Assembly: GCA_965612865.1 (NCBI GenBank)
Contig: CBFDTJ010000001.1
Coordinates: forward strand, 1-44,506
Source: an uncultured bacterium
GTDB lineage: Bacteria; Caldisericota; Caldisericia; B22-G15
Direction: 5' to 3'
DNA length: 44,506 bases
Position numbers and translations under genes: made by a program. Below, piece after piece: positions 7,493 to 21,503 of the stretch. Position 1 is the stretch's first letter; each line of letters starts with the position of its first letter. The notes under the pieces were generated by a model. It did no database searches, was not told the origin of the DNA, and saw nothing but the letters and a program-made list of their open reading frames with translations.

Positions 7493-7846
7493 TCACATAA
7501 ATATTACAAAATCATTGGAGTGAATAATCTCTTTTGTCTTTTCAAGGGATATAATCTCAGGATTGTATCCTTCATCAACTTCTTTAACTTTGTATTTCTT
7601 GAGATCCTCATCAACTACATATATTTTTGTTCCATACTTCTTAAGATACTTCTGGACCATTTTGAGAGAGAGGAGACCGAGCTTTTTAGGCTCAGTCTCT
7701 TTTGCTACCGAAACTATTGCTTCATCCATGAGAAGGATAGATGGTTCAAGATCCTCTCCATACATCCCAAAAGCTGTTCTAAATCCTTCATTCACCCAGA
7801 TAGAACCACATGGAGATTGATATATTACAAATAATATTCTTTTCAT
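7493..7846 (-). CDS. dsrF: DsrF/TusC-family sulfur relay protein
   Basis: 117 aa. MKRILFVIYQSPCGS..EGFRTAF.. is typical of DsrF/TusC. Confidence 0.7.
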   Translation of the reverse strand: MKRILFVIYQSPCGSIWVNEGFRTAFGMYGEDLEPSILLMDEAIVSVAKETEPKKLGLLSLKMVQKYLKKYGTKIYVVDEDLKKYKVKEVDEGYNPEIISLEKTKEIIHSNDFVIFM

Positions 7847-7855
7847 TTCTCCACC

Positions 7856-8209
7856 TCAAGCCATTAAATTTATAAAAACATCAGTGGTTGCAATTAATTC
7901 CGCAAGTTCTGGGAGACCACTCGGATTGGCTCCCTCAATTAGCATATCCTGAGTAACTCCTCTATAATCCATACATATTCCACAGATATCAACTCTTAAC
8001 CCTTTTTTAATAAGTTCTTTTAGCTTCTCGGGTATATTTCTATCAATTCTTAATGGCTTAACTTTGGAATTTGCAGCAAGAACTGAGTCTGAGAACAAAA
8101 ATAGTCTTACTTCATGCCCCTTATTTAATGCCGCTTCTATTATTTTTATTGCAGTATCAACATCTTCATAAGTGTACGGTGGAACCATAGCTTCAATTGT
8201 GATCTTCAT
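7856..8209 (-). CDS. dsrE: DsrE/TusD-family sulfurtransferase
   Basis: 117 aa. ..ALNKGHEV.. and DICGICMDYRGV align with the A. vinosum DsrE active-site Cys region. The C-terminal PSGLPELAELI..F matches ISGLGQLVEA. Confidence 0.75.
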   Translation of the reverse strand: MKITIEAMVPPYTYEDVDTAIKIIEAALNKGHEVRLFLFSDSVLAANSKVKPLRIDRNIPEKLKELIKKGLRVDICGICMDYRGVTQDMLIEGANPSGLPELAELIATTDVFINLMA

Positions 8210-9219
8210 TTGCTACCTCCATACAATATTGATGACATAAACCAATTACCTAGGATAAAGAATATACCAGCAACAATAGAACTCAAAGCAAGTTGCGGAA
8301 TTCCAGAAAAGAAATGTCCTATGTTACACCCACCGCCAAGAACTGCACCAAATCCCATGCATATTCCACCTATAGTTACCTGTAAGTAAGTTACTCCTCT
8401 CCTGGGTACTCTAAATTTAAATTCTTTATAGATAAGAGCAGTTATAAATGCTCCTATTACGATACCCAAAACTTCTGCACCTTCCCAATTCAACTTAACC
8501 TTAGTTGCATATCCCATAAATACATTAATCCATCCGCCAGTAATACCCAGTGGATAAGGTCTTCCAGATAAAGTGCTCGTCCAGAAACCAAACATTGCTA
8601 CAGGTATAAGGAGAATTCCTATCATTTGCCAGCTCAATTTACTATCCGGTCTCTTTGTTGTTTTTGTCAAAAATAGATATGCAACTATTATTGCAAAAAC
8701 AATAATGCCTATAATCCAAGGATTTATGTGAAGAAGTGTTGCAAGAGTTGGACCAATTTTTCCTTTATCATCAGCAAGATATAGAGAGCTTATAGAAGAA
8801 ACTTTTGTGGTATATTTTGAAACCGCCTTTAAAATAGGACTGAACATACCCTTTTTCGTTGCCCACGCTGTAAGCCCATAAAACAAAAGTGCAAGCCATG
8901 ATGTAGTATTTCCTTCTCCTACCCTATAGGTTGTTCCACTGGCACACCCACCTGCAAGGACCATACCTATTCCAAATATGAATGGACCTACAATATTTCC
9001 TATTATGTTGAATGGTTTTGGATTTAAATGAACCCATCCCATCTGTGCCATAAATAGAAAAGCAACTATCTCAAGAGCAATAGCGAACATTATGGCTTTG
9101 AACAGGAAATTATCTTTAAGAAGTTTTAGATCCCTGAAAGCGGAGTTAAAACAAACTCTCCCCCTCTGTAAAATTACTCCAAATGCTACTCCTGTAATAA
9201 TTCCTAAAATTATCTCCAT
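8206..9219 (-). CDS. yeeE: YeeE/YedE-family thiosulfate/sulfur-compound transporter
   Basis: Polytopic protein with the two hallmark Cys loops AGGCASGT and GGGCNIGH. It is paired with a TusA-like gene directly upstream. Confidence 0.85.
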   Translation of the reverse strand: MEIILGIITGVAFGVILQRGRVCFNSAFRDLKLLKDNFLFKAIMFAIALEIVAFLFMAQMGWVHLNPKPFNIIGNIVGPFIFGIGMVLAGGCASGTTYRVGEGNTTSWLALLFYGLTAWATKKGMFSPILKAVSKYTTKVSSISSLYLADDKGKIGPTLATLLHINPWIIGIIVFAIIVAYLFLTKTTKRPDSKLSWQMIGILLIPVAMFGFWTSTLSGRPYPLGITGGWINVFMGYATKVKLNWEGAEVLGIVIGAFITALIYKEFKFRVPRRGVTYLQVTIGGICMGFGAVLGGGCNIGHFFSGIPQLALSSIVAGIFFILGNWFMSSILYGGSK

Positions 9220-9232
9220 TTAGCACCTCCCT

Positions 9233-9484
9233 TTACTCTTTTTTACCGCCTACTTTAATTAAAATTCTCCATTCACTGGGCCCTATCTCTTCAATCTTTA
9301 AAACCTCATGCCCTTCTCTCTCTGCAGTTGCTGGTATTCTTTCCTTTGAGAGAGGATAATCAATTAAAACTTCAAGAATCTCTCCTGGTTTCATGCTTTT
9401 TAAAGCTCTTTTAGTATCCACATCCGGAACAGGGCAAACTTCTCCTCTTTCATCGATTGTTTTCGTTGCTTTTAATTCCTCCAT
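9233..9484 (-). CDS. tusA: TusA/SirA/YeeD-family sulfur carrier
   Basis: 83 aa with the CPxP motif (GEVCPVPDV). GGAGG SD 6 nt upstream. Its 5' end overlaps the arsR 3' end by 35 nt. Confidence 0.85.
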   Translation of the reverse strand: MEELKATKTIDERGEVCPVPDVDTKRALKSMKPGEILEVLIDYPLSKERIPATAEREGHEVLKIEEIGPSEWRILIKVGGKKE

Positions 9485-9827
9485 CCTTTACCTCCTTTCT
9501 TATGAATTCTTTAAAGCTTATAATTAGTTTTCTAATATTTTTATTTTTTATAGAATAGTAAACAAATTTCCCGTCTTTTCTTACGGAGAGAAGCGATACC
9601 TTCTTTAGAGTTGAAAGATGCTGGGAAACAGCAGATCTCGTGATTCCTAAGAGTGGTGATATCTCACATATACACATTTCTCCATTTTCCATTAGAAGAA
9701 ATAAAATTTTCATTCTTGTCTTATCTGTCATAACAGATAAGACATTCAATACTTTATCAAGCTCCGATTCCTCAATTTCTATTAAATAATTTCTTTTTAT
9801 CCCTTTTGTTAAACAATAGTTTTTCAT
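9450..9827 (-). CDS. ArsR/SmtB-family transcriptional regulator (CxC alpha3 motif EMCICEI)
   Basis: Winged HTH: ..DKTRMKILFLL..GEMCICEISPLLGITRSAVSQHLSTLK.. First gene of the sulfur cluster. Confidence 0.85.
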   Translation of the reverse strand: MKNYCLTKGIKRNYLIEIEESELDKVLNVLSVMTDKTRMKILFLLMENGEMCICEISPLLGITRSAVSQHLSTLKKVSLLSVRKDGKFVYYSIKNKNIRKLIISFKEFIRKEVKDGGIKSNENNR

Positions 9828-9837
9828 TTCACAATTA

Positions 9838-9865
9838 AGTATACACTAAATTGTTTTCTTGTCAA
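9838..9865 (-). promoter_or_regulatory. Sigma70-type promoter of the arsR-tusA-yeeE-dsrEFH cluster
   Basis: On the minus strand: TTGACA (9865-9860), 16 nt spacer, TATACT (9843-9838). The ATG lies only 10 nt after the -10. The inverted repeat ATTGTT-N8-AACAAT (9850-9869) overlaps the -35. Confidence 0.55.
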
Positions 9866-9902: not shown

Positions 9903-9927
9903 AAAAAAGGGAGGCAGTTTGCCTCCC
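9903..9927 (-). terminator. Rho-independent terminator of the Mo-hydroxylase operon
   Basis: GGGAGGC-N5-GCCTCCC hairpin (9909-9927) followed on the minus strand by TTTTTT. It lies 29 nt after the stop of the Mo subunit gene. Confidence 0.75.
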
Positions 9928-9955
9928 TTTTGATTTGATATTATAAACTATCTCT

Positions 9956-12343
9956 TCAAACCTCTTTTTTCTTTACCGGGACCATAAAGAAGTCGTCCAC
10001 CTCTTTCTTACCGTGTAGAAGAGCAAGAGCAATCTTTTCTGCAGTGATTGGCATTGCTTTTACCCTTACTCCAACGGCATCTTCAACTGCATTGGCTATT
10101 GCTGGAGCAATTGGTATCATAACATGCTCTGCCATACCTCTTGCACCAAATGGTCCATCGTGCTGAGGAACCTCTACAAATATTGGTATAAATTCATCTG
10201 GTATGTCAAGAGCTGTTGGTATCTTGTAATCTGTGAAGTTTGGATTGAGAAGTTTCCCATTCTCATCAAATCTCATATCTTCATAGAGAGCTGTTGCAAT
10301 ACCCTGAACAGCACCACCTATAAGTTGCTGTTTTAAAATTTCAGGATTAAGAGCCTTTCCAACATCTATCGCCTCTGCAAGTTTAAGAATATGAACTCTT
10401 CCAGTCTCTTTATCAACTTCAAGGACAACTCCGCCTGCTCCTACTGTGTAATGAACATTTGGATGTCCACCCTGACTTGTCTCTGGATCCTGAAGTGCTG
10501 ATGCAAATTCAACCATGATTGATCCACTTGCAACAATTGCTTCACCTCTGTATGTTCCATCTTCCATCATAATTCCATTAATCACAAAATCTTTAAGCGG
10601 AAGTTCAAAGTCTGGGTCTGTTGTGCATTTAACTTTCTCATCCTCAAGATAAAGGTGATCCTTTTCGTAGTAGAAGGCTCTATGAACAACATCAAATATC
10701 TTTTCTCTTGCCTCAAGAGCAGCTCTCTTTACGGCATTTCCAAGGAGCCATGTAGAGTGAGAGGCAACAGTCTGCCAGTGGTATGGGTTTCTATCTGTAT
10801 CCGGAAGCTCCACTCTAATCTTTTCTGGTGGTATAGATAGAATTTCAGCTGCAATCTGGGCCATAACTGTGTACATTCCCTGTCCTATTTCCATTCCAGA
10901 AAGAAGTATATTGACACTCCCGTCTTCACTGAATTTCAAGAATGCACTGGTGGTCACATTTGGAGGCATTGCAGGTGCCTTCCATATAGCTGCTATTCCT
11001 TTTCCTATAGCTTTCTTCGGATCTTTACTTTCTTCCTTCTCTTCAAGTTTTATTGCATCTGCAACTTTATCTATACACTCAATAAGACCATTTTCATTCA
11101 TTGGAGCGCCATAGGCAAGCGGATCTCCTTTCTTTATTCCGTTTATTTTTCTAAATTCTCTTGGGCTCATTCCAAGGGCTTTTGCAATCCTTGTCATGTG
11201 GGATTCAACTGAGAACATCATTTCTGAGTATCCAAAACCTCTGTACGGACCTGCTGCTGGAAGATTTGTGTAAACACAAAGAGCATCTATCTTTACATTA
11301 GGAATATTGTATGGTCCTGTTGCAGATAAGGCAGATGCGTTAACAACATTTGCACCATACTCTACATATGGACCAGCATCCCAATAATTGGTAAGTTCAA
11401 AAGCTGTTATTCTTCCGTCCTTCTTTACACCAACCTTAAGTTTTGAGACAACCTGCTGCCTCATATAGGTGTTGTAGAATTCCTGATCTCTCCTCCACCT
11501 TACCTTCACAGGGTGTCCCTTTACAGCTGTTGCTAAAGCTGCAGCAATTATCTCCATGGTTACTCCAGCTTTTCCTCCAAATCCTCCACCAACATATGGA
11601 ACAATTTCTCTTATATTCTGTTCTGTAAAACCAAGTGGTCTGAGTGCTTCAGCAATTAGGTGTCTCTGTGTATGAGGAGACTGAGAGGAAGCCCAGATGG
11701 TAAGTCTTCCATTGTAGTCAACAAAACCTACTGCAATATGTGTTTCCATACAGCAGTGTGCATATCTTGGAACTCTGTATGTATCTTCAAGTATAAAATC
11801 TGCTTCAGCAAAACCTTTCTCAACATCACCTTTTCTTACCTTTCTCCAGTGTGCAATATTCGTCCCACCATGGGGGTAATACCACGGAACATGGGGATAG
11901 GAACCTAATTCCGGATGTAATATTGGTGCACCTTCTTTTACTGCTTCAAATGGATCAAAAACTGCTGGGAGAGGTTCGTACTCAACTTTTACAAGTTTTG
12001 CAGCCTTTTTTGCAGCTTTTGGATTTCTTGCAATCACTGCTGCAACCTGTTCTCCTACAAATCTTACCCTATCTTGAGCAAAGATGTATCTATCTTTCAT
12101 ATAAAGACCAAACTTGTAGGGGAAATCCTTTCCAGTCACTACCTTTACGACTCCCGGAACTTTTTCTGCCTCAGATGTATCAATAGAGACAATTTTTGCA
12201 TGGGCATATGGACTTTCAACTATCTCTGCATAGAGAAGGTTTGGACCAAAGTTTATATCATCAACATACTTTGCTGCTCCAGTTACCTTATCTTTTTCAT
12301 CTATTCTATTAATTGGTTTCCCAATGAATTTGTATTCACTCAT
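9956..12343 (-). CDS. Xanthine dehydrogenase-family molybdopterin-binding large subunit
   Basis: 795 aa. N-terminal FIGKPINRIDEKDKVTGAAKYVDDI, the VGGGFGGK motif and the typical aldehyde oxidase/XDH a/b hammerhead and Mo-binding layout. Confidence 0.9.
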   Translation of the reverse strand: MSEYKFIGKPINRIDEKDKVTGAAKYVDDINFGPNLLYAEIVESPYAHAKIVSIDTSEAEKVPGVVKVVTGKDFPYKFGLYMKDRYIFAQDRVRFVGEQVAAVIARNPKAAKKAAKLVKVEYEPLPAVFDPFEAVKEGAPILHPELGSYPHVPWYYPHGGTNIAHWRKVRKGDVEKGFAEADFILEDTYRVPRYAHCCMETHIAVGFVDYNGRLTIWASSQSPHTQRHLIAEALRPLGFTEQNIREIVPYVGGGFGGKAGVTMEIIAAALATAVKGHPVKVRWRRDQEFYNTYMRQQVVSKLKVGVKKDGRITAFELTNYWDAGPYVEYGANVVNASALSATGPYNIPNVKIDALCVYTNLPAAGPYRGFGYSEMMFSVESHMTRIAKALGMSPREFRKINGIKKGDPLAYGAPMNENGLIECIDKVADAIKLEEKEESKDPKKAIGKGIAAIWKAPAMPPNVTTSAFLKFSEDGSVNILLSGMEIGQGMYTVMAQIAAEILSIPPEKIRVELPDTDRNPYHWQTVASHSTWLLGNAVKRAALEAREKIFDVVHRAFYYEKDHLYLEDEKVKCTTDPDFELPLKDFVINGIMMEDGTYRGEAIVASGSIMVEFASALQDPETSQGGHPNVHYTVGAGGVVLEVDKETGRVHILKLAEAIDVGKALNPEILKQQLIGGAVQGIATALYEDMRFDENGKLLNPNFTDYKIPTALDIPDEFIPIFVEVPQHDGPFGARGMAEHVMIPIAPAIANAVEDAVGVRVKAMPITAEKIALALLHGKKEVDDFFMVPVKKKEV

Positions 12344-12354
12344 CTTGCTCCTCC

Positions 12355-12819
12355 TTAATATTTCTTTGAGGCATCAAGTATTGCCTCAATTATAGAAACA
12401 TACCCGGTGCAACGGCAAAGGTTTCCACTTATAGCTTCTTTTACCTCTTCTTCTGTTGGGTGAGGATTTTTCTGGAGTAGCTCTGTAGCACTCATTATCA
12501 TTCCAGGGGCACAGAATCCACACTGGAACGAACTATGCTCAATAAAGGATTCCTGAAGAGGAGTAAGTTTATCCTTTGAAAGACCTTCAAGGGTAGTTAT
12601 TTCATGACCATCCACCTCTATAGCAAGGATAAGACAGCTTCTAACGCTCTTTCCGTCAAGAAGAACTGTACATGTTCCACAGTCTCCTCTTCCGCAGCCA
12701 TACTTTGGAGCAGTAATTCCAAGTTTTGTTCTTAAAACTTCAAGAAGGATATCGTTAGGTTCAACCTCAATGGTTCTCTTTTCTCCATTTAAGGTGAAAG
12801 TTATGGTTTTCTTTTCCAT
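12355..12819 (-). CDS. (2Fe-2S)-binding small subunit of the Mo hydroxylase (CoxS-like)
   Basis: CGRGDCGTCTV and CGFCAPG..CRCTGY cluster motifs. I chose the ATG at 12819 (MEKKTITF..), which is preceded by GGAGGA. The supplied longer ORF overlaps the FAD subunit gene. Confidence 0.9.
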   Translation of the reverse strand: MEKKTITFTLNGEKRTIEVEPNDILLEVLRTKLGITAPKYGCGRGDCGTCTVLLDGKSVRSCLILAIEVDGHEITTLEGLSKDKLTPLQESFIEHSSFQCGFCAPGMIMSATELLQKNPHPTEEEVKEAISGNLCRCTGYVSIIEAILDASKKY

Positions 12820-12829
12820 TTTTATCCTC

Positions 12830-13720
12830 CTATATGAGCCTTGTCCCGTAATCGGGACCCTTTCCATTCAGTCTTCCAACTGCTGCTTTAAGTGCTCTAT
12901 CAAGCATTACCTTTGCCATGTGCATTCTATATTCTTTTGTTGCTCTTATATCTGTAATAGGTGAGATCTCCTCTTCTACAAGTTTTTTAGCCTCTTCAAT
13001 TAAGGAATCGGAAAGTTCTTTGCCATTGAGAAGAGATTCAATTTTCTTTGCTCTTGTTGGTTTTGGTCCCACAGCACAGAAGGCAACTCTGTACTCATTT
13101 CCAGATAACGCAAGAACACCTACTCCAACTTGTGCAAGATCTTCTCCATTGTATCTTCCAAGTTTCACATAGCATCCTGCATGCTTTTTCTGTGGAAGAG
13201 GTATCTCAATGTATTCTACAAGTTCTCCCTCTTTAAGTGCTGTCTTTCTCGGTCCAAGGAACCACTCTTCAATTGGAATTCTTCTTTCTCCATCCTTACC
13301 CTTTACCACAACAGTTGCTTCATACAGAAGAAGTGCAGGTCCAGAATCAAGGGATGGAACTGCTGAACATATGTTTCCAGCCATTGTTGCTCTGTTTCTT
13401 ATACCCATAGATGCAACTGTTTTTGCACTTTCCCATAGAAGAGGAAATTTCTCTTTTACAGTTTCATTATCAATAAGCTCGTTAAAGGTGACAAGGGAAC
13501 CAACTATCAACTTGTTATCTTTGAACTCCAGTGTTTTTAGCTCTTCAAGACCTTTAATATCAATTACTGCGTCCGGGGTTTCAAATCCATCCTTGATTCT
13601 TACAACAAGATCAGTTCCACCAGAAAGAACTCTCGCTTTAGCTCCATACTCGTTTAAAAGCTCAATGGCTTCATCAATTGATGAAGGTTTAAAATAGTTA
13701 AATTCATGAACTATAGCCAT
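12830..13720 (-). CDS. FAD-binding medium subunit of the Mo hydroxylase (CoxM-like)
   Basis: 296 aa. ..VLSGGTDLVVRIK.. FAD-binding PCMH-type pattern. GGAGG SD upstream. Confidence 0.88.
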   Translation of the reverse strand: MAIVHEFNYFKPSSIDEAIELLNEYGAKARVLSGGTDLVVRIKDGFETPDAVIDIKGLEELKTLEFKDNKLIVGSLVTFNELIDNETVKEKFPLLWESAKTVASMGIRNRATMAGNICSAVPSLDSGPALLLYEATVVVKGKDGERRIPIEEWFLGPRKTALKEGELVEYIEIPLPQKKHAGCYVKLGRYNGEDLAQVGVGVLALSGNEYRVAFCAVGPKPTRAKKIESLLNGKELSDSLIEEAKKLVEEEISPITDIRATKEYRMHMAKVMLDRALKAAVGRLNGKGPDYGTRLI

Positions 13721-13734
13721 ATCATACCTCCAGA

Positions 13735-14553
13735 TTATTCAGGTGGTTCAAGGGCAACAACCCTCATCATAGAGGATTCAAATTCTATTGCCCTCAATGG
13801 AAAAGCACCAATCCACACTCTTTTGTTTTTAACCTTATCAATATCTCCACCAAGATTTTCAGCATGAACGAGACCTTTAGGGAATAATTTAAGGTGCATC
13901 ACCTGATAATATTCCTCAGGAGGGAACATTTCATCCCAGCTCTTTCCATATTTTTCCTTAAGCTTCTTTTCTGCCTCCTGAAATGCCTTTGGATGCCATT
14001 GTCTGATTATTGTATTCATTGGATGGTCAGCGCTTCCGCAATCTACGCCAATCCACTTAAACTTCATTTCCAGTGCCCATTTGTGAAATTCAGGATCAGG
14101 TCCTGGGTGCTTTACAAAGTATCTCACTTCATCAGATTCTGGCTGGTCCCATGCATACCTGTGATAGCCTGTGTTGATAATCAGAATATCACCCTTTCTA
14201 ATATCTGCCTTTTTCATGAGCATTTCTGGGGAATAGAGATCGTAATCGCCAACTTCATCGGAGATATCTACAACAACACCAGGTCCGATCCATTCTTCTA
14301 TTGGAACTTCACCTATGGATCTCCCGCTTGCATGAAAATGAATTTCTCCATCCATATGGGTTCCCACATGATGACTTGTTGTTATTACCTGACCGTTAGC
14401 TCCCTGCCCCATGTGTGCTCCAGCAATCCTCTTAAAATACTGAACACTTAAGGGAATATAACTTGGCCATGGAGGAGTGTGTACACTCAAAGGCTGTGTC
14501 AGGTCGTAGACCTTAACTTTACCCATAAACTCTAAAAATTCATCGATGTTCAT
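13735..14553 (-). CDS. Cyclase-family metal hydrolase (kynurenine formamidase / isatin hydrolase superfamily)
   Basis: HHVGTHMDGEIH matches the HxGTHxDxPxH family signature. AAGGAGG SD upstream. Confidence 0.75.
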   Translation of the reverse strand: MNIDEFLEFMGKVKVYDLTQPLSVHTPPWPSYIPLSVQYFKRIAGAHMGQGANGQVITTSHHVGTHMDGEIHFHASGRSIGEVPIEEWIGPGVVVDISDEVGDYDLYSPEMLMKKADIRKGDILIINTGYHRYAWDQPESDEVRYFVKHPGPDPEFHKWALEMKFKWIGVDCGSADHPMNTIIRQWHPKAFQEAEKKLKEKYGKSWDEMFPPEEYYQVMHLKLFPKGLVHAENLGGDIDKVKNKRVWIGAFPLRAIEFESSMMRVVALEPPE

Positions 14554-14564
14554 CTTAACCTCCT

Positions 14565-14738
14565 TTACTTACCCAATAGTTTCTTTAGAGCTTCCATTAC
14601 TTCTTCATCTCCACCTGCAGGTGGTCTCCAATCCACCTGAATAACCTTAACTCCTGCGTCTTCAAGGCTTTCCTTGAAAGAGAGAAGGCCAATATTTATA
14701 ACTTTAAGTTCTTTACCAAAGAGATCTTTTATAGCCAT
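14565..14738 (-). CDS. Unannotated 57-aa ORF translationally coupled to fdrA
   Basis: My own translation: MAIKDLFGKELKVINIGLLSFKESLEDAGVKVIQVDWRPPAGGDEEVMEALKKLLGK. Its ATG overlaps the fdrA stop (TAATG). Its stop is followed by AAGGAGG and the ATG of the cyclase gene. It fills an otherwise unexplained 184-nt gap and falls below the 60-aa cutoff of the supplied track. Confidence 0.65.
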   Translation of the reverse strand: MAIKDLFGKELKVINIGLLSFKESLEDAGVKVIQVDWRPPAGGDEEVMEALKKLLGK

Positions 14739-16315
14739 TACTTGTCACCTCCCAGCTTCTTTACAATATATGCAGATAGTTTACTTGCTGCAGCATTTGA
14801 TGGCATAACTATTGCTCCAGCTTCTTTAAGTTCCTTTTCCACTTTCTCTTTGTTCTGTGGGTCTTTCTTTGTTCCTGTTATGGAGCATATAATAGATAGA
14901 TCTCTCCCTTCTTTCTTTGCTATCTCCTTTGCTTCCTTTATCACCGGTGCAAGTTCCTCTCCTGGTTTCATGTTTGATCCATACCCAAGTACTACATCAA
15001 GTAGAATTATGGCTACTTCTGGATCCTTTGCTTCTTCAAGGATCTTTTTGTTTCTTAAGGTATAGTCAATCATTGGATGTGGTCTTCCAACTGTAAATTC
15101 ATCCTCTCCTAAATCAATAACAGTATTCTTGTAACTCTTCCATGAGTCTTTAAGCTTGAATTCATCCTTTAAAGGAGCATTACCATAGACATAACCAATC
15201 ATATCCTTGAATAGAAGCTGAGCCTCATCACAAAGGGTTCCTCCTGTGTACAAACCTCTGACATACTTCTGGCCGTCCTTCTTCTTTGAAGCTTCCTCAT
15301 CAGCAAGTTTCTTAATTTCCTCTTCTCTTTCTTCAAGAAGCTTCTTAAATTCATCCATGCTTTTCCCTTTAGAGAGAGAAGCTGCGATGAGTCCTGCCTC
15401 CTCAAGGGTGCTGGCCGGGATAGCTCCAGCATTTTTGACCACTTCTGGATCTCCACCAATAAATATTCCAACAACAGGTTTTTTAATCTCGTCTTTTATA
15501 AGCTCTGCAATTTTCTTCAGCACATCTTCGTGTGGGGGTTTTGAAACAAGAGCAATGATTTTTGTGTTTTCGTCTTCGTTGAGAGCTTTCATTCCCTCAA
15601 GAAACATTATCCCACCAACATCCTTTTTGACATCTCTTCCACCTGTACCTATAGCCTGAGATATTCCTGCTCCCTCATTTGTAATTACACAACTTACCTC
15701 CTGAAGTCCTGTTCCCGATGCTGCTACAATTCCTATATCTCCACGATTTACAACATTTGAAAAGGCAAGTGGGGCTCCATTTATTATTGCAGTACCACAG
15801 TCTGGTCCCATTACAAGAAGGCCTTTATCCCTTGCGTACTTTTTGAGCTCAATTTCTTTTTCAAGGGGAACATTATCCGAGAAGAGCATAACATGAAGAC
15901 CTTTTTCAAGTGCTTTCATTGCCTCATCACCAGCATATTTTCCTGCCACGGAGATAAGCACAAGATTCGCATCTGGCATGATTTCGATAGCACCTTCAAG
16001 GCTTTTAGGAAGGTAGTCTCCCGCCTCTTCAAATTTTGTTCTGCTTTCCTGAAGGTCTTTTTCTGCCTTTTCAAGAGCTTCCTCTGCGAGTTTATCATCC
16101 TTTGCCTTTACTGCAATAATGAGATCGGAATCCTTTGCCTCCTTAAATTCATCAAGAAGCATTCCCGAAGCTTCAAGAATTGATTTATTCTCCTCTGTAC
16201 CCATTACAATAGCAGCATCATCAATTCCATCAATTTCAGTTAAAGCTTTGGCGACAAGCATCAGAGTTACAGAATCAAAGTACTGACCTTTTTTAATAAC
16301 ACCTTTTACAACCAT
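14738..16315 (-). CDS. fdrA: FdrA/AllF-family protein (succinyl-CoA synthetase alpha-like, CoA-ligase fold)
   Basis: N-terminus MVVKGVIKKGQYFDSVTLMLVAKAL matches E. coli FdrA MIHAFIKKGCFQDSVSLM... 525 aa. CoA-binding and ligase-CoA domains are present. Confidence 0.85.
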   Translation of the reverse strand: MVVKGVIKKGQYFDSVTLMLVAKALTEIDGIDDAAIVMGTEENKSILEASGMLLDEFKEAKDSDLIIAVKAKDDKLAEEALEKAEKDLQESRTKFEEAGDYLPKSLEGAIEIMPDANLVLISVAGKYAGDEAMKALEKGLHVMLFSDNVPLEKEIELKKYARDKGLLVMGPDCGTAIINGAPLAFSNVVNRGDIGIVAASGTGLQEVSCVITNEGAGISQAIGTGGRDVKKDVGGIMFLEGMKALNEDENTKIIALVSKPPHEDVLKKIAELIKDEIKKPVVGIFIGGDPEVVKNAGAIPASTLEEAGLIAASLSKGKSMDEFKKLLEEREEEIKKLADEEASKKKDGQKYVRGLYTGGTLCDEAQLLFKDMIGYVYGNAPLKDEFKLKDSWKSYKNTVIDLGEDEFTVGRPHPMIDYTLRNKKILEEAKDPEVAIILLDVVLGYGSNMKPGEELAPVIKEAKEIAKKEGRDLSIICSITGTKKDPQNKEKVEKELKEAGAIVMPSNAAASKLSAYIVKKLGGDK

Positions 16316-17190
16316 ACTTCTCCTCCTTTCTTCAAAGTCATAAATAGTCCTGTCCCAATGTCACTCCCCGAAGTATCTCCTACCCCCATTAGCTTAAAGA
16401 AGTGTTTTTCCACATCTCTCTTTCCCTTATAGATAATGGAGGTGATCAGGTTTTTCACTCTCTCAAAAAACTCTCCTCTGCTTGAAAAGTATAAAAATGA
16501 TGATGAGATTAGATTGTGAGTTTTAGATAATTTATATATTTTATCCCTAATGGTGGTTAGATTATAATTAAACAAATTTTCAAGGATATAGAGTCCTGAA
16601 AGAACTCCAGATATAAAGTCATCTCCACTGGGTGTGAGACCGTAACCAACTCCCTTTAACAAACTAATCCCGGTTTCTATGTTTCCACTTAACAACTTTC
16701 CTGCACCTGCCTTTATTCTATTTACAAAAGCCCTTTCAAATTCAGTCTCAAAATATTCTTCCCTTCTTTCATCCAGAAGGAAAGATAAACTCCGTTCTGG
16801 TGAATGAAAGATGAGTAGATCCCTTAGAGTGTGAAGATTATTTATGTATCTATTTCTGGAGAACTCTAAAGAAAAATCAATTTTCGATGTATAGATTAGA
16901 TTTTTGTTTATTTTAAAACGATTTTTGTTCACTGCTATAAACCCATCTCCAATGTATAGAGCCTTTACATAATCTATCGGGAAACCTTTTATAACTATGT
17001 TTATAGGTCCTCTTCCTACTTCCTCTGTAACTATTGATGTGAGATAACTATCTTTTACAAAATTTACCACTCTTCTAAATCTTGAGTGGAGCTTATAGTT
17101 TCCTATACGGAGTCTATCTCCTGTACTCAATAACTCTAATTCATAGATATTAGTTTCTAAATTCTCTTTTAATACAGTTTTTCCTTTCAC
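16306..17190 (-). CDS. DUF2877 (YlbF/AllH-like) protein
   Basis: GVGYGLTPSGDDFISGVLSGL and a C-terminal GVGDTSGSDIGTGL are the hallmark motifs as I recall them. GTG start. It overlaps the fdrA start by 10 nt. Confidence 0.75.
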   Translation of the reverse strand: MKGKTVLKENLETNIYELELLSTGDRLRIGNYKLHSRFRRVVNFVKDSYLTSIVTEEVGRGPINIVIKGFPIDYVKALYIGDGFIAVNKNRFKINKNLIYTSKIDFSLEFSRNRYINNLHTLRDLLIFHSPERSLSFLLDERREEYFETEFERAFVNRIKAGAGKLLSGNIETGISLLKGVGYGLTPSGDDFISGVLSGLYILENLFNYNLTTIRDKIYKLSKTHNLISSSFLYFSSRGEFFERVKNLITSIIYKGKRDVEKHFFKLMGVGDTSGSDIGTGLFMTLKKGGEVWL

Positions 17191-17195
17191 TTAGA

Positions 17196-17645
17196 TTACC
17201 TTAAGTGCATAATTCCAAGTGCAGCCTTTTCATGGTTTGTGATTGGATAAAAGGCTGAATCTCCAAATATTCCAACACAAAGCCACTTTCCATCAGAGAC
17301 TATTCCCACTTTAAGGGAAAGGGAGGAATCTAAAGACTCATTTAATATAAGGGAATTCAATGCTTCAAGGGAGGCATGAACAAGGGCATGGACTTCTGCA
17401 GTTGTTTTGTTAATAACGTTACAATTTAAGGCAGCACCAAGAACCGCCGGAATTAGTTTTTTTCTGATATCGGAGGCAAATCCTGCCACTCGTGTAACGC
17501 CTATTTTGTACTTTTTGAGTTCGGATAGTTTCTTTTTTAACTCTATCTCCTCATCATCAGAGGACATTGCAAGTAGAAGTGCTGCTTTACCCACCCTATC
17601 CACATCCATTCTAAATTCTGTTGCAACAACACCTTTTTTTTCCAT
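17196..17645 (-). CDS. hutP: HutP-family RNA-binding regulatory protein
   Basis: 149 aa. It aligns by eye with B. subtilis HutP: AEVHALVHASLEAL vs ESHALYHATMEAL (HxxxH metal ligands), GKWLCVGIFGDS vs GDWIAVSLYGT, and C-terminal ALGIMHL vs FGVGINHI (third His). SD GGAGAGG upstream. Confidence 0.8.
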   Translation of the reverse strand: MEKKGVVATEFRMDVDRVGKAALLLAMSSDDEEIELKKKLSELKKYKIGVTRVAGFASDIRKKLIPAVLGAALNCNVINKTTAEVHALVHASLEALNSLILNESLDSSLSLKVGIVSDGKWLCVGIFGDSAFYPITNHEKAALGIMHLR

Positions 17646-17677
17646 ATCCTCTCCTGTTCTCTAAAATCTACATTTAA

Positions 17678-17706
17678 ATTATTAACTATCTACTTAAAGT
17701 TGTCAA
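17678..17706 (-). promoter_or_regulatory. Sigma70-type promoter of the hutP-led operon
   Basis: On the minus strand: TTGACA (17706-17701), 17 nt spacer, AATAAT (or TAATAA with a 16-nt spacer) at about 17678-17684. Confidence 0.5.
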
Positions 17707-17762
17707 GTAAAATTGACGCCCGATCACTTTATATAAAAGAGATTTTTTGGTATATTTTTAAT

Positions 17763-18293
17763 ATGAAATTAAAGGGTGAATTAGGGATAATAGAAGTATC
17801 CTCATTAATACAGACTATAAATCAATTGAGGAAGACTGGAAAACTTGAGATTCTTCTTCCAGATGGAGATAAGGGGGAGATTTTTTTTGATAACGGGGAG
17901 ATAATACACGCACATTCACCTGATAATTTCGGGCTTGAAGCCCTTGCAGAAATCTTATTATTTAAAGAGGGAGAATTTAATTTTAAAGAAAATATAATTC
18001 TTCCAGCACCTTCCATTAAAATGGGAACAGAAAGAGCAATAATAGAAGCCATAAGTATGGTAGATGAGGTTCAGGGTGGAGATGATATTTTTTCAAAGGT
18101 GCCGGAAGTGACTTTTGGCAGTGATGATTCTAAGATATCTCTTGATGCTGATGAGTTAGCTATATTAATGAAAAGTAACGGTAAAAGGACTTTATCTGAA
18201 GTATTATCTGAGATTGGAATGGATAGAGTTAAATTTTTAAAGATAATTGACCAACTATTAAAAAAGGGTATAATAACCTTAAGAAAGGAGTAA
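17763..18293 (+). CDS. DUF4388 (PATAN-like) domain protein
   Basis: GELGIIEVSSLIQTINQLRKTGKLEI..IFFDNGEIIHA..GLEALAEILLFKEGEFNF is the classic DUF4388 pattern. I use the ATG at 17763. The supplied TTG at 17700 lies inside the divergent promoter. Confidence 0.75.
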   Translation: MKLKGELGIIEVSSLIQTINQLRKTGKLEILLPDGDKGEIFFDNGEIIHAHSPDNFGLEALAEILLFKEGEFNFKENIILPAPSIKMGTERAIIEAISMVDEVQGGDDIFSKVPEVTFGSDDSKISLDADELAILMKSNGKRTLSEVLSEIGMDRVKFLKIIDQLLKKGIITLRKE

Positions 18294-18296
18294 GAA

Positions 18297-18782
18297 ATGG
18301 CTGAAGGAATGTCCTCTATTGTTATATCTGATGAGGATTTAAAAAGAATTGATGATTACCTATCTCAAACTCTTGCGGATTCCCAGGCAAAAAACATTCT
18401 TCTTTCTGATAGATCAGGCCAACTCATAACAAAACATGGGGGTGTGTCAAAGGGAGATGCTTTAAATATTGCTGCTCTTGCAGCAGGCCTCTTCTCTGCA
18501 ACCAACGAGCTTGCAAAACTTCTTGGAGAGAAGGAATTTACTGTCACATTCCATCAAGGTGAAGAGACCAATATTCACATTTCCCTGCTTGTACCCCAGG
18601 TTCTTCTTGTAATTGTGTTTGATAATAGAGCACCAGTGGGAGCAATAAGATTCTGGGCAAAGAAGATAGGAGCCGAAATTGTTCCTTATCTTAAAAATAT
18701 TACTGAAAAACCACCTGAATCTACTATCCAGAAAGAGGAGATGGAATCAGAAGTAGAAAAGAAATTGGATTCCCTCTTCTAA
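18297..18782 (+). CDS. mglB: Roadblock/LC7 domain protein (MglB-like GAP)
   Basis: ..ILLSDRSGQLI..AALAAGLFSATNELAKLLG.. Roadblock fold pattern. It sits immediately upstream of the MglA-like GTPase gene. Confidence 0.75.
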   Translation: MAEGMSSIVISDEDLKRIDDYLSQTLADSQAKNILLSDRSGQLITKHGGVSKGDALNIAALAAGLFSATNELAKLLGEKEFTVTFHQGEETNIHISLLVPQVLLVIVFDNRAPVGAIRFWAKKIGAEIVPYLKNITEKPPESTIQKEEMESEVEKKLDSLF

Positions 18783-18789
18783 TAGAATA

Positions 18790-19374
18790 ATGGCTCTTAT
18801 AAATTATTTTTTAAAAGAAATTACGTTTAAGATAGTCTATTACGGTCCCGCCATGAGCGGGAAAACTACTAATTTGAGGTATATATATAACCATCTTCCT
18901 GAAAAACTTAAAGGAAAGTTTACTTCCATTGCCACAAAGGATGAAAGAACGCTTTTCTTTGACTTTCTTCCCCTTGACCTTGGAAGAATAAAAGGTTTCA
19001 CTGTAAAACTTTCTTTATATACCGTTCCAGGACAGGCAATATATAGCCTTACGAGAAAAACAATTCTTAAAGCAACTGATGGAATAATATTTGTAGCTGA
19101 TTCTCAGAGATATGTAAGAGAAAAGAATATAGAAAGTTTTAGAGATATGGCAGAGAATCTGAAGGAATTTGGTCTTTCCATTGAAAAAATTCCTATAGTT
19201 CTTCAGTACAACAAGAGGGATTTGAGGGATATTTTAAGTGTGGAAGAGTTAAATAATGATTTAAATGAAGGAGGAACGCTCTATCCATACTTTGAGTCTA
19301 TAGCCATTGAGGGGAAGGGTGTGATGGAGTGTCTGAAGGCTATCTCAAAACTGGTGATAAGGAAAGTCTCCTGA
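18790..19374 (+). CDS. mglA: MglA-family Ras-like small GTPase
   Basis: KIVYYGPAMSGKTTNL (P-loop), TVPGQ (G3) and QYNKRD (G4) are MglA signatures. Confidence 0.85.
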   Translation: MALINYFLKEITFKIVYYGPAMSGKTTNLRYIYNHLPEKLKGKFTSIATKDERTLFFDFLPLDLGRIKGFTVKLSLYTVPGQAIYSLTRKTILKATDGIIFVADSQRYVREKNIESFRDMAENLKEFGLSIEKIPIVLQYNKRDLRDILSVEELNNDLNEGGTLYPYFESIAIEGKGVMECLKAISKLVIRKVS

Positions 19375-20661
19375 GGAGGTAAATTCTTTTAATTTCTTAA
19401 TTCCTCTTTCAAACATTCTCTTTCTTCTTTCCTTTTTTGGAAGTTTTTCTTCAATGGGGGGCAAGAGACCAAAATGAGCATTTGTTGGCTGGAAGTCACC
19501 CTCTTTGGATGTTATGTATTTTATTAGAGCTCCTATCATTGTCTCTTCGGGAAAAGTAATGCTTTCCTTACCCTGAAATTTATTGAAGATATTTAATGAC
19601 GCCACAAGGCCTGTGGCTATGTTTTCTGTGTATCCCTCCGAGCCTATAATTTGTCCTGCAAAGAAGACATTCTCTTTTTCTTTTAACTCAAGGTTGATCT
19701 TTAATAGCCTGGGAGAGTTTATAAAGGTATTTCTGTGCATAGAACCGTAAGAGAGAAACTCTGCATTCTTTAAAGCAGGAATCAATCTGAATGCTCTTTT
19801 TTGTTCACCGTATTTAAGTGATGTTTGAAATCCAACAAGGCTAAAGAATGTTTTTTCTTTATTTTCAGGCCTTAGCTGCACAACTGCAAAGGGTCTTTTT
19901 CCCGTTTTTGGGTCTATTAAACCAGTGGGTCTTAAAGGACCAAATCTAAGAGTATCCTTGCCTCTTCTGGCTATTTCTTCAATTGGAAGGCAGGCTTCGA
20001 AAAACTTTCCTTTCTCAAAATCTCTTACCTCAGTTTGCTCTGCATTTATCAGCTCTCTCCAGAAGATTTCATACTCATTTTCATTTAAGGGACAGTTCAG
20101 GTAATCTTTCTCATCTGAGTATCTTCCTCCCCAGAATGCCTTTGAATAGTCTATGGTGGATCCATCCACTATGGGGGCGATAGCGTCATAAAAGTATAAA
20201 AAATCCTCTCCCAAAAATTTTTTTAGATAGAGAGAAAAACTATCTGATGTTAATGGTCCGGTAGCAACAAGAACCGGTCTTTCGTTTGGTAACTCTTTTA
20301 TCTCCTCTCTAACAATCTCAATGTTCTCCATAGATGAAAGTATGGAGGTTATACGCTCAGAAAATTTCTCCCTATCAATTATGAGAGATTTTTTAGATGG
20401 TATGCTCACCTCATAGGCAGTTTTTATAAGGAGTGAGTTTAATAGCTTCAGTTCCTCTTTTATCATTCCCCTACCCCTTGTTACGTCTGTTGAACCAAAT
20501 GAATTTGAGCAAACTATCTCAGAAAGATAACCTGTTTTGTGGGCAGGTGTGAATTTCTTTGGTCTCATCTCAAACAGGGTTACCTTGATTCCTCTTATTG
20601 CAAGTTGAAAAGCAGCTTCACTTCCTGCAAGTCCCCCACCTATTATAATAACTTTCTTCAT
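19345..20661 (-). CDS. trmFO: Methylenetetrahydrofolate-tRNA-(uracil54-C5)-methyltransferase TrmFO
   Basis: MKKVIIIGGGLAGSEAAFQLA.., 438 aa, with the GidA-like fold pattern throughout. Its 3' end overlaps the mglA 3' end by 30 nt (convergent). Confidence 0.88.
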   Translation of the reverse strand: MKKVIIIGGGLAGSEAAFQLAIRGIKVTLFEMRPKKFTPAHKTGYLSEIVCSNSFGSTDVTRGRGMIKEELKLLNSLLIKTAYEVSIPSKKSLIIDREKFSERITSILSSMENIEIVREEIKELPNERPVLVATGPLTSDSFSLYLKKFLGEDFLYFYDAIAPIVDGSTIDYSKAFWGGRYSDEKDYLNCPLNENEYEIFWRELINAEQTEVRDFEKGKFFEACLPIEEIARRGKDTLRFGPLRPTGLIDPKTGKRPFAVVQLRPENKEKTFFSLVGFQTSLKYGEQKRAFRLIPALKNAEFLSYGSMHRNTFINSPRLLKINLELKEKENVFFAGQIIGSEGYTENIATGLVASLNIFNKFQGKESITFPEETMIGALIKYITSKEGDFQPTNAHFGLLPPIEEKLPKKERRKRMFERGIKKLKEFTSSGDFPYHQF

Positions 20662-21503
20662 TTCTTGTGTTCTGTAACTCTACCAAGGAGAATATCAAGA
20701 GCGTGAGATAGAACAGGAACAATAACATCCATACATTCTTTTACTGCTTTCTCAGAGCCGGGAAGATTAATTATAATCATGTCTCCTCTTATCCCAGAAA
20801 TTCCACGAGATAGATACGCCATCTTTGTTATTTTTCCTGTTTCAAATCTTATTAATTCTGGAATACCAGGTATCTCTTTTTCTACTATCTCTTTTGTTGC
20901 TTCAGGGGTTACATCCCTTCTGGAAAAGCCTGTTCCTCCTGTGGTTATAAGGAGGTTTATACCGCTTTTCTCTGCTTCTATCAAGCTTTCTTTTATACTT
21001 TCTTTTTCGTCAGGTACAATCCTGTAGAAAACTACATTAAAACCATTCTCTGTTAAAATTTTTTCTATTGCTTTTCCTGATCTGTCTTCTCTTTCGCCCT
21101 TTGAACCTTTATCACTTACAGTGAGTACGCCTGACCATATATCATCAGCATCAATTTCCACAGTGACCCTGTCACCGTCTCTGAGATTTAGTTTCTCTCG
21201 TAAGGGAACATCTGATACTATCTCCAGTACATCTTCATGTTTTGTTTTCTCAGGAAGAACTATATGACAATCCATGTTGTTCAACTTACATGGTGACAGG
21301 AATATACTGCCAAAGCCAGAAAATCCTTTAATGATTTTTCTCTCTTTAAATTTTATATTTTTAACCTTTAAAGGTGTCCTAATATTTAGAGTTCCATTAA
21401 ATACATCTATTCCTAAAACATCCTTTATTCTTTCTTTGTATATTTTAATGTACTTTTCTCCCTCTTTTATTCCGCTGGTTACTTTTCCAGTTATTCTCTT
21501 CAT
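20658..21503 (-). CDS. Fusion protein: archaeal-type CTP-dependent riboflavin kinase (RibK/DUF120) N-domain + MogA/MoaB molybdopterin adenylyltransferase-family C-domain
   Basis: Residues 1 to about 125 match M. jannaschii RibK by eye: GKVTSGIKEGEKY..FNGTLNI.. and HIVLPEKTKHEDVLEIVSDVPLREKLNLRDGDRVTVEI vs [39 protein letters not shown]. The C-half has LTVSDKGSKGEREDRSG..LLITTGGTGFSRRDVTPEAT.. Confidence 0.75.
   Translation of the reverse strand: MKRITGKVTSGIKEGEKYIKIYKERIKDVLGIDVFNGTLNIRTPLKVKNIKFKERKIIKGFSGFGSIFLSPCKLNNMDCHIVLPEKTKHEDVLEIVSDVPLREKLNLRDGDRVTVEIDADDIWSGVLTVSDKGSKGEREDRSGKAIEKILTENGFNVVFYRIVPDEKESIKESLIEAEKSGINLLITTGGTGFSRRDVTPEATKEIVEKEIPGIPELIRFETGKITKMAYLSRGISGIRGDMIIINLPGSEKAVKECMDVIVPVLSHALDILLGRVTEHKK

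Follow-up and report, generated by a model that had tools for sequence, protein, structure and literature searches.

A 44,506-nt stretch of DNA from an uncultured Caldisericia bacterium (lineage B22-G15; GenBank assembly GCA_965612865.1, contig CBFDTJ010000001.1, positions 1 to 44,506), referred to here as the window, carries on its minus strand eight co-directional, tightly coupled open reading frames (ORFs) that bring together a HutP-family protein, homologues of the AllF and AllH subunits of the Escherichia coli AllFGH enzyme, a cyclase-family hydrolase and a three-subunit molybdenum (Mo) hydroxylase. All eight lie at the coordinates given in a preliminary description of this DNA, and the order and family assignments proposed there were borne out by significant profile matches in Pfam and NCBIfam. 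The first three genes encode a HutP-family protein of 149 amino acids (aa) (17196 to 17645; PF09021, E = 4.7e-32), an AllH-like (DUF2877) protein of 294 aa with a GTG start (16306 to 17190; PF11392, E = 2.3e-21, 76.9 bits) and an AllF/FdrA-like protein of 525 aa that lacks the C-terminal tail module (14738 to 16315). They are followed by a free-standing 57-aa AllF-tail/AllG-head module with no Pfam match (14565 to 14738) and by a cyclase-family metal-dependent hydrolase of 272 aa (13735 to 14553; PF04199, E = 2.6e-35, 122 bits). The last three genes encode the flavin adenine dinucleotide (FAD) subunit (296 aa, 12830 to 13720; FAD_binding_5, E = 3.4e-51, plus CO_deh_flav_C), the 2x[2Fe-2S] subunit (154 aa, 12355 to 12819; Fer2 plus Fer2_2) and the molybdopterin (Mo) subunit (795 aa, 9956 to 12343; Ald_Xan_dh_C, MoCoBD_1 and MoCoBD_2) of the hydroxylase.

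The gene set is framed by the best promoter-like and terminator-like sites on the minus strand. The sequence TTGACA-N17-AATAAT lies 5' of hutP at 17706 to 17678 and matches the consensus at 11 of 12 positions, the joint best score in the region, and a 12-bp hairpin stem with six GC pairs and a TTAATTTGTT tail lies at the operon end (9905 to 9931). For comparison, 89 loci were fetched as the neighbourhoods of DUF2877 homologues and annotated with profiles in this analysis; they are cited below by locus number. Both sites, which had been proposed as the operon boundaries, occur at the same positions in L001, a relative that together with L002 carries the same eight genes: the promoter-like site is found there at 9476 to 9504, and an equivalent of the terminal hairpin follows the Mo gene in L001 as well as in L008, where TTGACA-17-TAAAAT precedes hutP. 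Promoter-like matches as a class are no commoner in the window than in shuffled sequence, so support for the promoter comes from its position and conservation. The junctions measure, in gene order, 5, -10, -1, 11, 14, 10 and 11 nt, as expected from the earlier statement that every junction is an overlap or a gap of at most 14 nt. The GGAGG-type Shine-Dalgarno (SD) sequences attributed to the internal genes are indeed strong before allF, the mini-ORF and the cyclase, FAD, FeS and Mo genes, as before hutP, but the claim fails for allH, which has a weak AAGG and the GTG start. The best start of the 2Fe-2S gene is at 12819 (SD AGGAGGA), an alternative ATG at 12867 giving a product of 170 aa. From the junctions, SDs, promoter, terminator and conservation in L001 and L002, the eight-gene region is predicted to be one transcription unit from promoter to terminator. 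Synteny with L001 and L002 ends directly downstream of the Mo gene.

All eight genes are under purifying selection. When the window was compared with L001, at a synonymous divergence (dS) of 0.8 to 1.7, the ratios of nonsynonymous to synonymous substitution (dN/dS) were 0.033 for HutP, 0.155 for AllH, 0.027 for AllF, 0.027 for the mini-ORF, 0.008 for the cyclase and 0.063, 0.014 and 0.026 for the FAD, FeS and Mo subunits, respectively. AllH is the fastest-evolving of the subunits, 69% identical to its L001 counterpart, yet it too is constrained. The range of 0.008 to 0.155 rules out a decaying operon.

The function of AllFGH was assigned only in 2024, when the E. coli proteins were identified as an oxalurate-using oxamate carbamoyltransferase (OXTCase), a coenzyme A (CoA)-independent transcarbamoylase that is the only biochemically defined AllFGH and that needs all three of AllF, AllG and AllH for activity (PMC11326118). 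The OXTCase reaction interconverts oxalurate plus Pi and carbamoyl phosphate plus oxamate. The window AllF scores 529.6 bits against NCBIfam NF004760 (cut-off, 433) over model positions 2 to 495 of 555, is 42% identical to residues 1 to 496 of E. coli AllF, matches PDB 3DMY with an E value of 4.3e-89 and contains CoA_binding and Ligase_CoA domains. AllH retains the invariant GxGLTPSGDD motif and shares 26% identity with its E. coli counterpart, over 103 residues only. Its AlphaFold2 (AF2) model (mean predicted local distance difference test [pLDDT] score, 91.5) combines a beta domain at the N terminus with a helical domain at the C terminus; a fold search with this model returned no PDB neighbour and hence no mechanistic lead. 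Compared with the E. coli allFGHK operon, the window shares the AllF and AllH homologues and has the equivalent of AllF residues 509 to 554 as its 57-aa ORF, so that the AllF tail is a separate protein, but it lacks the AllG body, carbamate kinase and the allantoin genes, and the context of these genes is instead a Mo hydroxylase and a cyclase-family hydrolase.

The 57-aa ORF had been described as a coupled mini-ORF, a label that now needs revision: it corresponds to the C-terminal module of FdrA of the E. coli type in detached form, and most AllG proteins carry the same module as an extension at their N terminus. It matches positions 509 to 554 of the 555-position NCBIfam FdrA model, aligns to E. 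coli AllF 509 to 554 with 39% identity and to residues 430 to 475 of the crystallised FdrA chain 3DMY, and shares 56 to 67% identity with the first 45 to 52 residues of long AllG proteins from other phyla; its identity to the free 59-aa ORF of L008 is 78%. Translation of the ORF is coupled to that of AllF through a TAATG overlap, with a GGGAGGTG SD. Its own SD, this coupling, the dN/dS of 0.027 and the many free homologues rule out a frameshift or pseudogene. Among the fetched loci, fusion of the module to AllG occurs 49 times, to AllF three times and to both once; it is free in nine loci and also in L090, L091, L093 and L094. An exhaustive search identified 767 representative proteins of this family, many of them 55 to 70 aa long, and 66 of the 150 best are 70 aa or shorter; the short members carry the signature VINIGL..F...VDWRPPAGGD. 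On these alignments the mini-ORF belongs to an unnamed but widespread family of small proteins. This family is a portable element whose coding sequence falls between those of AllF and AllG. Given that free, AllF-fused and AllG-fused states all occur, the module is most simply read as an interface or adaptor element between AllF and AllG. The one double fusion is a 1,014-aa ORF of Lachnospiraceae bacterium AM48-27BH (L076) made up of AllF, the mini module and AllG, a "Rosetta stone" arrangement that supports a physical association of the three.

The gene combination does not stand alone. A check of genomic neighbourhoods indicated that the window holds a reduced derivative of a widespread cluster that includes AllG: the order AllH-AllF-(mini)AllG-cyclase-FAD-FeS-Mo is complete in 28 of the 89 loci, and these span about a dozen phyla (Verrucomicrobiota, Elusimicrobiota, Ignavibacteria, Cloacimonadota, Eisenbacteria, Fermentibacteria, Acidobacteria, Riflebacteria, Bacteroidales, Chlorobiota, Myxococcota, Bacillota and others). 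No Caldisericota representative was among the matches listed in a genome-collection scan. Across phyla the cyclase is 73 to 82% identical, the Mo subunit 66 to 75% and AllH about 40%, AllH being the fast-evolving component in all versions of the cluster. A thiolase and a DUF35 protein are encoded 5' of allH, translationally coupled to it, in nine of the 28 full clusters, and amidase-signature enzymes are found in nine. Other recurring accessory genes encode a CN-hydrolase, a CoA-transferase III (four loci), an NCS2 (Xan_ur) permease, which is linked in L008, L090, L091, L093, L094, L050 and L055, and a protein here termed c0. The last, of 224 to 241 aa and without a Pfam match, adjoins the clusters in several phyla (L009:7728-8390; L016:7728-8375; L093:6570-7295; L008:20451-20861, minus strand), with 41 to 58% identity between phyla, and is absent from the window. 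Thiolase, DUF35 and CoA-transferase genes are absent from the window and from every Caldisericota version.

A second kind of locus was separated by the presence of carbamate kinase. In searches with E. coli AllK (tblastn), carbamate kinase was found beside 17 to 19 AllHFG loci that have no cyclase and XDH genes, from Bacillus, Neobacillus, Sporosarcina, Tissierella, Atlantibacter and others (Bacillota, Pseudomonadota and other groups), and beside none of the 28 clusters with cyclase and XDH genes; AllD likewise occurs in no locus of the latter kind. The AllHFG loci thus appear to fall into two classes: class A, in which AllFGH is accompanied by carbamate kinase (the characterised OXTCase type), and class B, the cyclase and Mo hydroxylase cluster. 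Class A carbamate kinases are 35 to 41% identical to E. coli AllK (L052, L053, L056, L057, L063 to L065, L067, L069, L071, L075, L076 and L081 to L085). As class B has no carbamate kinase, the direct transfer to it of a "carbamoyl phosphate to ATP" function is weakened.

The earlier observation that the gene combination has neither a DUF1116 subunit nor a carbamate kinase was upheld across all 44.5 kb of the window in six frames. Searches with tblastn and with an AllG profile (hmmsearch --max) found no AllG (DUF1116, PF06545) body, the 57-aa module being the sole match, and tblastn with E. coli AllK and AllD found neither gene. The same six-frame search disposes of a DUF1116 domain hidden in AllF or the cyclase, the lengths of which (525 and 272 aa) equal those in AllG-bearing loci. 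The window, L001 and L002 are the only complete loci with AllF and AllH but without AllG. Three Caldisericia loci (L008, L090 and L091), with a HutP 73 to 77% identical to that of the window, have the order permease, two small ORFs, HutP-AllH-AllF-mini-cyclase-AllG(414 aa)-tandem cyclase(545 aa)-FAD-FeS-Mo, and two further Caldisericota loci without HutP (L093 and L094) have the order c0-AllH-AllF-mini-AllG-cyclase-FAD-FeS-Mo-permease. The window and the L008 type run collinear as far as the cyclase, including the junction between mini-ORF and cyclase, and its cyclase is uniformly 76 to 89% identical to the first cyclase of L008 and about 54% identical to either half of the tandem cyclase. This collinearity and the orthology of the two cyclases indicate that the absence of AllG is derived, through a putative deletion between the cyclase and FAD genes that took AllG, the tandem cyclase and an internal terminator. 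The uniform identity of the window cyclase to the first cyclase rules out that AllG was lost when the cyclase and its tandem counterpart recombined. The tandem cyclase itself, of 545 to 555 aa with two cyclase domains each 51 to 56% identical to the single cyclase, stands alongside AllG in some versions of the cluster (L008 [14704 to 16341], L090, L091, L050, L055 and L059). Between its gene and the FAD gene, the L008-type loci have a strong, conserved hairpin with a U-run (L008:16341-16405, L090:16797-16864 and L091:16669-16731) that is absent from the window; the stem sequences differ among the three loci yet stay complementary through compensatory changes, and segments of about 120 nt fold at -30 to -33 kcal/mol. 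This element is plausibly an internal terminator or attenuator dividing the ancestral cluster, a control point deleted in the window lineage. Similarity across 9956 to 16315 of the window is mosaic, in that AllF (78%) and the mini-ORF (88%) are nearer to the L093 type and the FAD (70%) and Mo (75%) subunits nearer to the L008 type, which suggests either recombination between cluster versions or uneven evolutionary rates.

An AllFGH system of normal composition whose AllG gene lies at another place in the genome, such as a second L008- or L093-type cluster, would also account for these findings and is compatible with the pathway favoured below; we regard it as a real possibility, if on the less probable side. 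Several Caldisericota metagenome-assembled genomes have a short stand-alone AllG (413 to 414 aa), a cyclase gene already separates AllG from AllF and the mini-ORF in L008-type loci, and the strong purifying selection on AllF, the mini-ORF and AllH is that expected if the complex persists. On the other hand, AllG was not found within 10 kb on either side of L001 and L002, any more than in the window, AllG adjoins AllF/AllH in all other complete loci examined, and, as a weaker point, none of the few NCBI AllG accessions listed is near the window-type AllH MCD6168312 (MCD6168312.1).

The cyclase has the metal motif HVGTHMDGEIH (HxGTHxDxxxH type) at residue 62. It shares this motif and the PF04199 domain with kynurenine formamidase KynB and isatin hydrolase, but is related to them only distantly (E = 4e-11, N-terminal half) and is longer than KynB (272 versus about 210 aa). 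The arylformamidase/kynurenine formamidase equivalog TIGR03035 scores 57.7 bits, over the N-terminal half only, against a cut-off of 223. It falls in a tightly conserved orthologue group of its own, 73 to 82% identical across phyla and always linked to AllHFG and XDH genes.

The Mo-enzyme subunits share the three-subunit Mo/FAD/2x[2Fe-2S] architecture of the xanthine dehydrogenase (XDH) family (Thauera 4-hydroxybenzoyl-CoA reductase [4-HBCR; 1RM6], 6-hydroxypseudooxynicotine dehydrogenase and bovine XDH). The nearest solved relative of the Mo subunit is the 4-HBCR alpha subunit (345.7 bits), followed by 6-hydroxypseudooxynicotine dehydrogenase (279.9 bits) and by CoxL and the xanthine oxidases (near 250 bits). 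In an alignment with bovine xanthine oxidase (3SR6 chain C), residues corresponding to Q767, R912, F914 and the catalytic E1261 are kept; of the purine-orienting residues, E802, R880 and T1010 are each replaced by Ala and F1009 falls in a gap. All three subunits score below every NCBIfam equivalog cut-off: the XdhA, XdhB and XdhC models give 540, 221 and 178 bits against cut-offs of 780, 310 and 217, and the 4-HBCR models TIGR03194 and TIGR03195 give 506 against 995 and, in two stretches, 134 against 405. The FAD subunit has only three scattered Cys and no 4Fe-4S insert of the 4-HBCR type, and the 2Fe-2S subunit has eight Cys. The loss of the E802, R880, F1009 and T1010 equivalents argues that the protein is not a xanthine dehydrogenase, and overall it is predicted to be a competent hydroxylase that is neither that enzyme nor a 4-HBCR-type reductase. 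The earlier label of an XDH-type Mo hydroxylase holds at the level of the family, but not for its purine-binding residues or its closest solved relative. The metal motif of the cyclase, together with the catalytic Glu, the Mo-site residues and the eight Cys of the FeS subunit, indicates that the enzymes are active.

A conventional explanation would have the operon serve canonical purine/allantoin catabolism, with the Mo enzyme as xanthine dehydrogenase and AllF/AllH as an oxalurate-cleaving OXTCase. XdhA, XdhB and XdhC are among the best NCBIfam models for the Mo-enzyme subunits, and AllF passes the FdrA cut-off. Those three scores are nevertheless all below their cut-offs, the purine-orienting residues are absent, the window has no AllG, carbamate kinase or ureidoglycolate dehydrogenase, AllH is only distantly similar to that of E. 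coli, and class B is distinct from the carbamate-kinase-linked class A. This explanation is largely refuted and we consider it very improbable.

The first gene of the operon encodes a protein that spans PF09021 in full (profile positions 1 to 128 of 128), matches the B. subtilis HutP chains in PDB with an E value of 3.6e-5 and scores 41 bits against the equivalog NF002838 (cut-off, 155). Numbered by our own count along the B. subtilis sequence, the H73/H77/H138 metal triad, the retention of which had been noted in the preliminary description, is kept in the alignment to the B. subtilis structures together with E81 (EVHALVHAS for ESHALYHAT; TNHEK for LEHET). Both R88 and R98, which we take to hold the carboxylate of histidine, align to Leu. 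As the metal triad is kept and these two positions are changed, the simplest reading is a metal-dependent ligand site with a ligand other than L-histidine. The word-sharing homologues of this protein are almost all from Caldisericia, are 72 to 96% identical and head class B clusters. On a metagenome contig (L092:7196-7738), a distant relative of 180 aa with 39% identity adjoins flgM/flgN/flgK, another non-hut context for the HutP family.

Control of the operon at the RNA level, which had been put forward on the strength of this gene, is no more than a reasonable hypothesis. HutP of B. subtilis forms hexamers, and its binding to RNA depends on ligand and Mg. In the hut operon, a terminator lies right after hutP and two clusters of three NAG triplets with 2- to 4-nt spacers lie about 20 nt apart (PMC12591593, PMC2425495). 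No terminator follows hutP in any of the lineages, the gap between hutP and allH being 5 nt in the window and 14 nt in L001 and L008; no conserved internal terminator was found in the window or L001; and an Rfam scan returned no element, its sole match being a sub-threshold small RNA on the terminator. A hairpin inside allH (16785 to 16757) was rejected as a HutP target because it is not conserved in L001. The candidate HutP-type leader run UAG-N4-UAG-N4-CAG, which overlies the hutP SD (17670 to 17654, minus strand), is weak evidence: no other TAG-N4-TAG-N4-NAG match occurs on the two strands of the window (about 89 kb), for which the expectation is 1.71, and L001 retains the run with one substitution in a spacer, but it is absent from the L008, L090 and L091 leaders. 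It is the one strict cluster, and no convincing second NAG cluster was seen. NAG triplets in threes with 2- to 4-nt spacers, at 3.5 to 6.7 per kb, are uninformative as evidence. The operon resembles B. subtilis hutPHUIGM in that a HutP-fold protein with the His triad and Glu81 is the first gene of a catabolic operon and in its candidate UAG-N4-UAG-N4-NAG run, but differs in lacking the hut genes and a terminator after hutP, in having a single NAG cluster placed over the SD, and in its Leu residues at the Arg88 and Arg98 positions.

HutP may, alternatively, not regulate this operon at all: its target could lie far away, a permease gene for instance, or it could serve as a ligand-binding accessory protein, its position at the head being inherited from an ancestral cluster in which it may have governed the internal terminator that precedes the XDH genes. 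The L008-type internal terminator is deleted in the window lineage and yet HutP remains constrained, and a terminator after hutP is lacking in all lineages, both as this alternative would have it. The unique run that overlies the hutP SD in both the window and L001 fits cis-autoregulation, however, and no NAG-repeat site with HutP spacing was found beside the L008-type internal terminator. We hold this alternative to be rather doubtful.

Taken together, the reading we favour, with middling confidence, is that of a single operon for a pathway dependent on a Mo hydroxylase, a ring amidohydrolase and AllF/AllH that acts on a non-purine N-heterocycle, a reduced, HutP-associated Caldisericia variant of class B. 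The Mo/FAD/2Fe-2S enzyme would hydroxylate a C-H bond beside a ring nitrogen of a common N-heterocycle other than xanthine or hypoxanthine, a pyrimidine-like or other nucleobase-like substrate being favoured by the linkage of an NCS2 permease to sister loci of the cluster. The metal-dependent cyclase-family hydrolase would then open the resulting cyclic amide, and AllF, its detached 57-aa tail module and AllH would act on the ring-opened acyl-amide or ureide, transferring a carbamoyl or acyl group. Following the deletion of AllG in the window lineage, the third step would use an AllG encoded elsewhere or be simplified; the loss of AllG, the tandem-cyclase gene and the internal terminator would have fused the genes into one tightly coupled operon. 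The HutP-family protein would probably be an RNA-binding regulator dependent on metal and on a sensed ligand other than L-histidine, and in cis it would act only at the short leader over its own ribosome-binding site, not at a hut-type intercistronic terminator. The succession of hydroxylation, amide hydrolysis and an AllF/AllH step had been proposed before and its logic is reasonable; the carbamoyl transfer named in that proposal, beside acyl transfer, is less secure.

Several points weigh against this pathway. The substrate and each chemical step are read from family membership and gene context, and the permease, amidase and thiolase that lie behind the inference are absent from the window itself. 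An AllG-less enzyme is without precedent, given the requirement of the E. coli activity for all three subunits. Class B, unlike canonical AllFGH loci, has no adjacent carbamate kinase, which makes carbamoyl transfer less secure, and the links to thiolase/DUF35 or CoA-transferase, with the kinship of the Mo subunit to a CoA-thioester enzyme, would favour acyl/CoA chemistry. Finally, there is no terminator for HutP to antiterminate, and the leader motif is not conserved in L008-type loci.

The points in favour of acyl/CoA chemistry can be developed into a CoA-thioester route, in which the class B AllF/AllH(/AllG) proteins would form or transfer an acyl-CoA and not act as a transcarbamoylase. The Mo enzyme would work on a (hetero)aroyl-CoA, as do furoyl-CoA dehydrogenase and 4-HBCR, the cyclase would hydrolyse the CoA-ester ring and, in other phyla, thiolase/DUF35 would cleave the beta-ketoacyl-CoA product. 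The preference of the Mo subunit for the 4-HBCR alpha subunit over the xanthine oxidases (345.7 versus about 250 bits), the CoA_binding and Ligase_CoA domains of AllF, the coupled thiolase and DUF35 genes in nine of 28 clusters with CoA-transferase III in four loci, and the want of a carbamate kinase near any class B cluster all fit such a route. It sits poorly with the CoA-independence of the sole biochemically defined AllFGH (PMC11326118) and with a FAD subunit that lacks the 4Fe-4S insert; the NCS2 nucleobase permeases, the amidases and the CN-hydrolases of the cluster argue for N-heterocycles and amides, and the thiolase, DUF35 and CoA-transferase genes do not occur in any Caldisericota version. 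On balance we find it unlikely.

For an N-heterocycle pathway of the favoured type, the oxidative pyrimidine pathway, which proceeds through uracil dehydrogenase, barbiturase and ureidomalonase, offers an analogy only. The two share a logic of Mo hydroxylation, a ring-opening amidohydrolase and N-acylurea cleavage, and many class B clusters have an amidase-signature enzyme; we know of no AllFGH-type enzyme in the pyrimidine pathway. The ring-opening enzymes also differ, barbiturase having the cyanuric-acid-hydrolase fold and not the cyclase fold (PMC4051656). A bolder proposal, which we judge distinctly unlikely as a whole, is that class B constitutes an undescribed, anaerobe-wide N-heterocycle pathway (for example, for uracil or thymine by way of a barbiturate-like intermediate, the ring-opened N-acylurea being cleaved by an enzyme of the AllFGH type), that the Caldisericia HutP senses a non-histidine heterocycle and that AllF, the 57-aa protein and AllH work without AllG.

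All parts of the operon belong to known families; the conserved combination, the AllG-less state and the association with HutP are undescribed in the literature searched on DUF2877, DUF1116, FdrA, AllFGH and barbiturase, where no account of the cluster was found, in agreement with the initial impression of an undescribed module. A second, distinct genomic class of AllHFG is tied to a highly conserved cyclase-family hydrolase and a non-xanthine Mo hydroxylase in about a dozen anaerobic, mostly uncultured phyla, and defines a concrete, testable pathway. We consider class B and the portable AllF/AllG module the most valuable outcome, above the reduced operon of the window itself. That operon, as a naturally AllG-less one, is a ready-made test of subunit essentiality, and a HutP homologue outside a hut operon, with an altered ligand pocket, would extend a regulator family that the review consulted covers only in Bacillus species.

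Three features of the surrounding DNA were also recorded. Downstream of the operon, a separate minus-strand unit (7493 to 9827) with its own promoter, TTGACA-16-TATACT at 9865 to 9838, encodes an ArsR-family regulator, TusA, a YeeE/YedE-type sulfur transporter and two DsrE/DsrF-like proteins. Upstream on the plus strand (17700 to 19374) lies an MglA/MglB-like trio consisting of a DUF4388 (PatA_N) protein, a Roadblock/LC7 protein and a small Ras/Arf-like GTPase, which adjoins the operon in L001 and L002 also. About 3 kb from the Mo-enzyme operon, at 20658 to 21503 on the minus strand, a 281-aa protein is encoded in which a CTP-dependent riboflavin kinase is fused to a MoCF_biosynth (molybdopterin-binding) domain.

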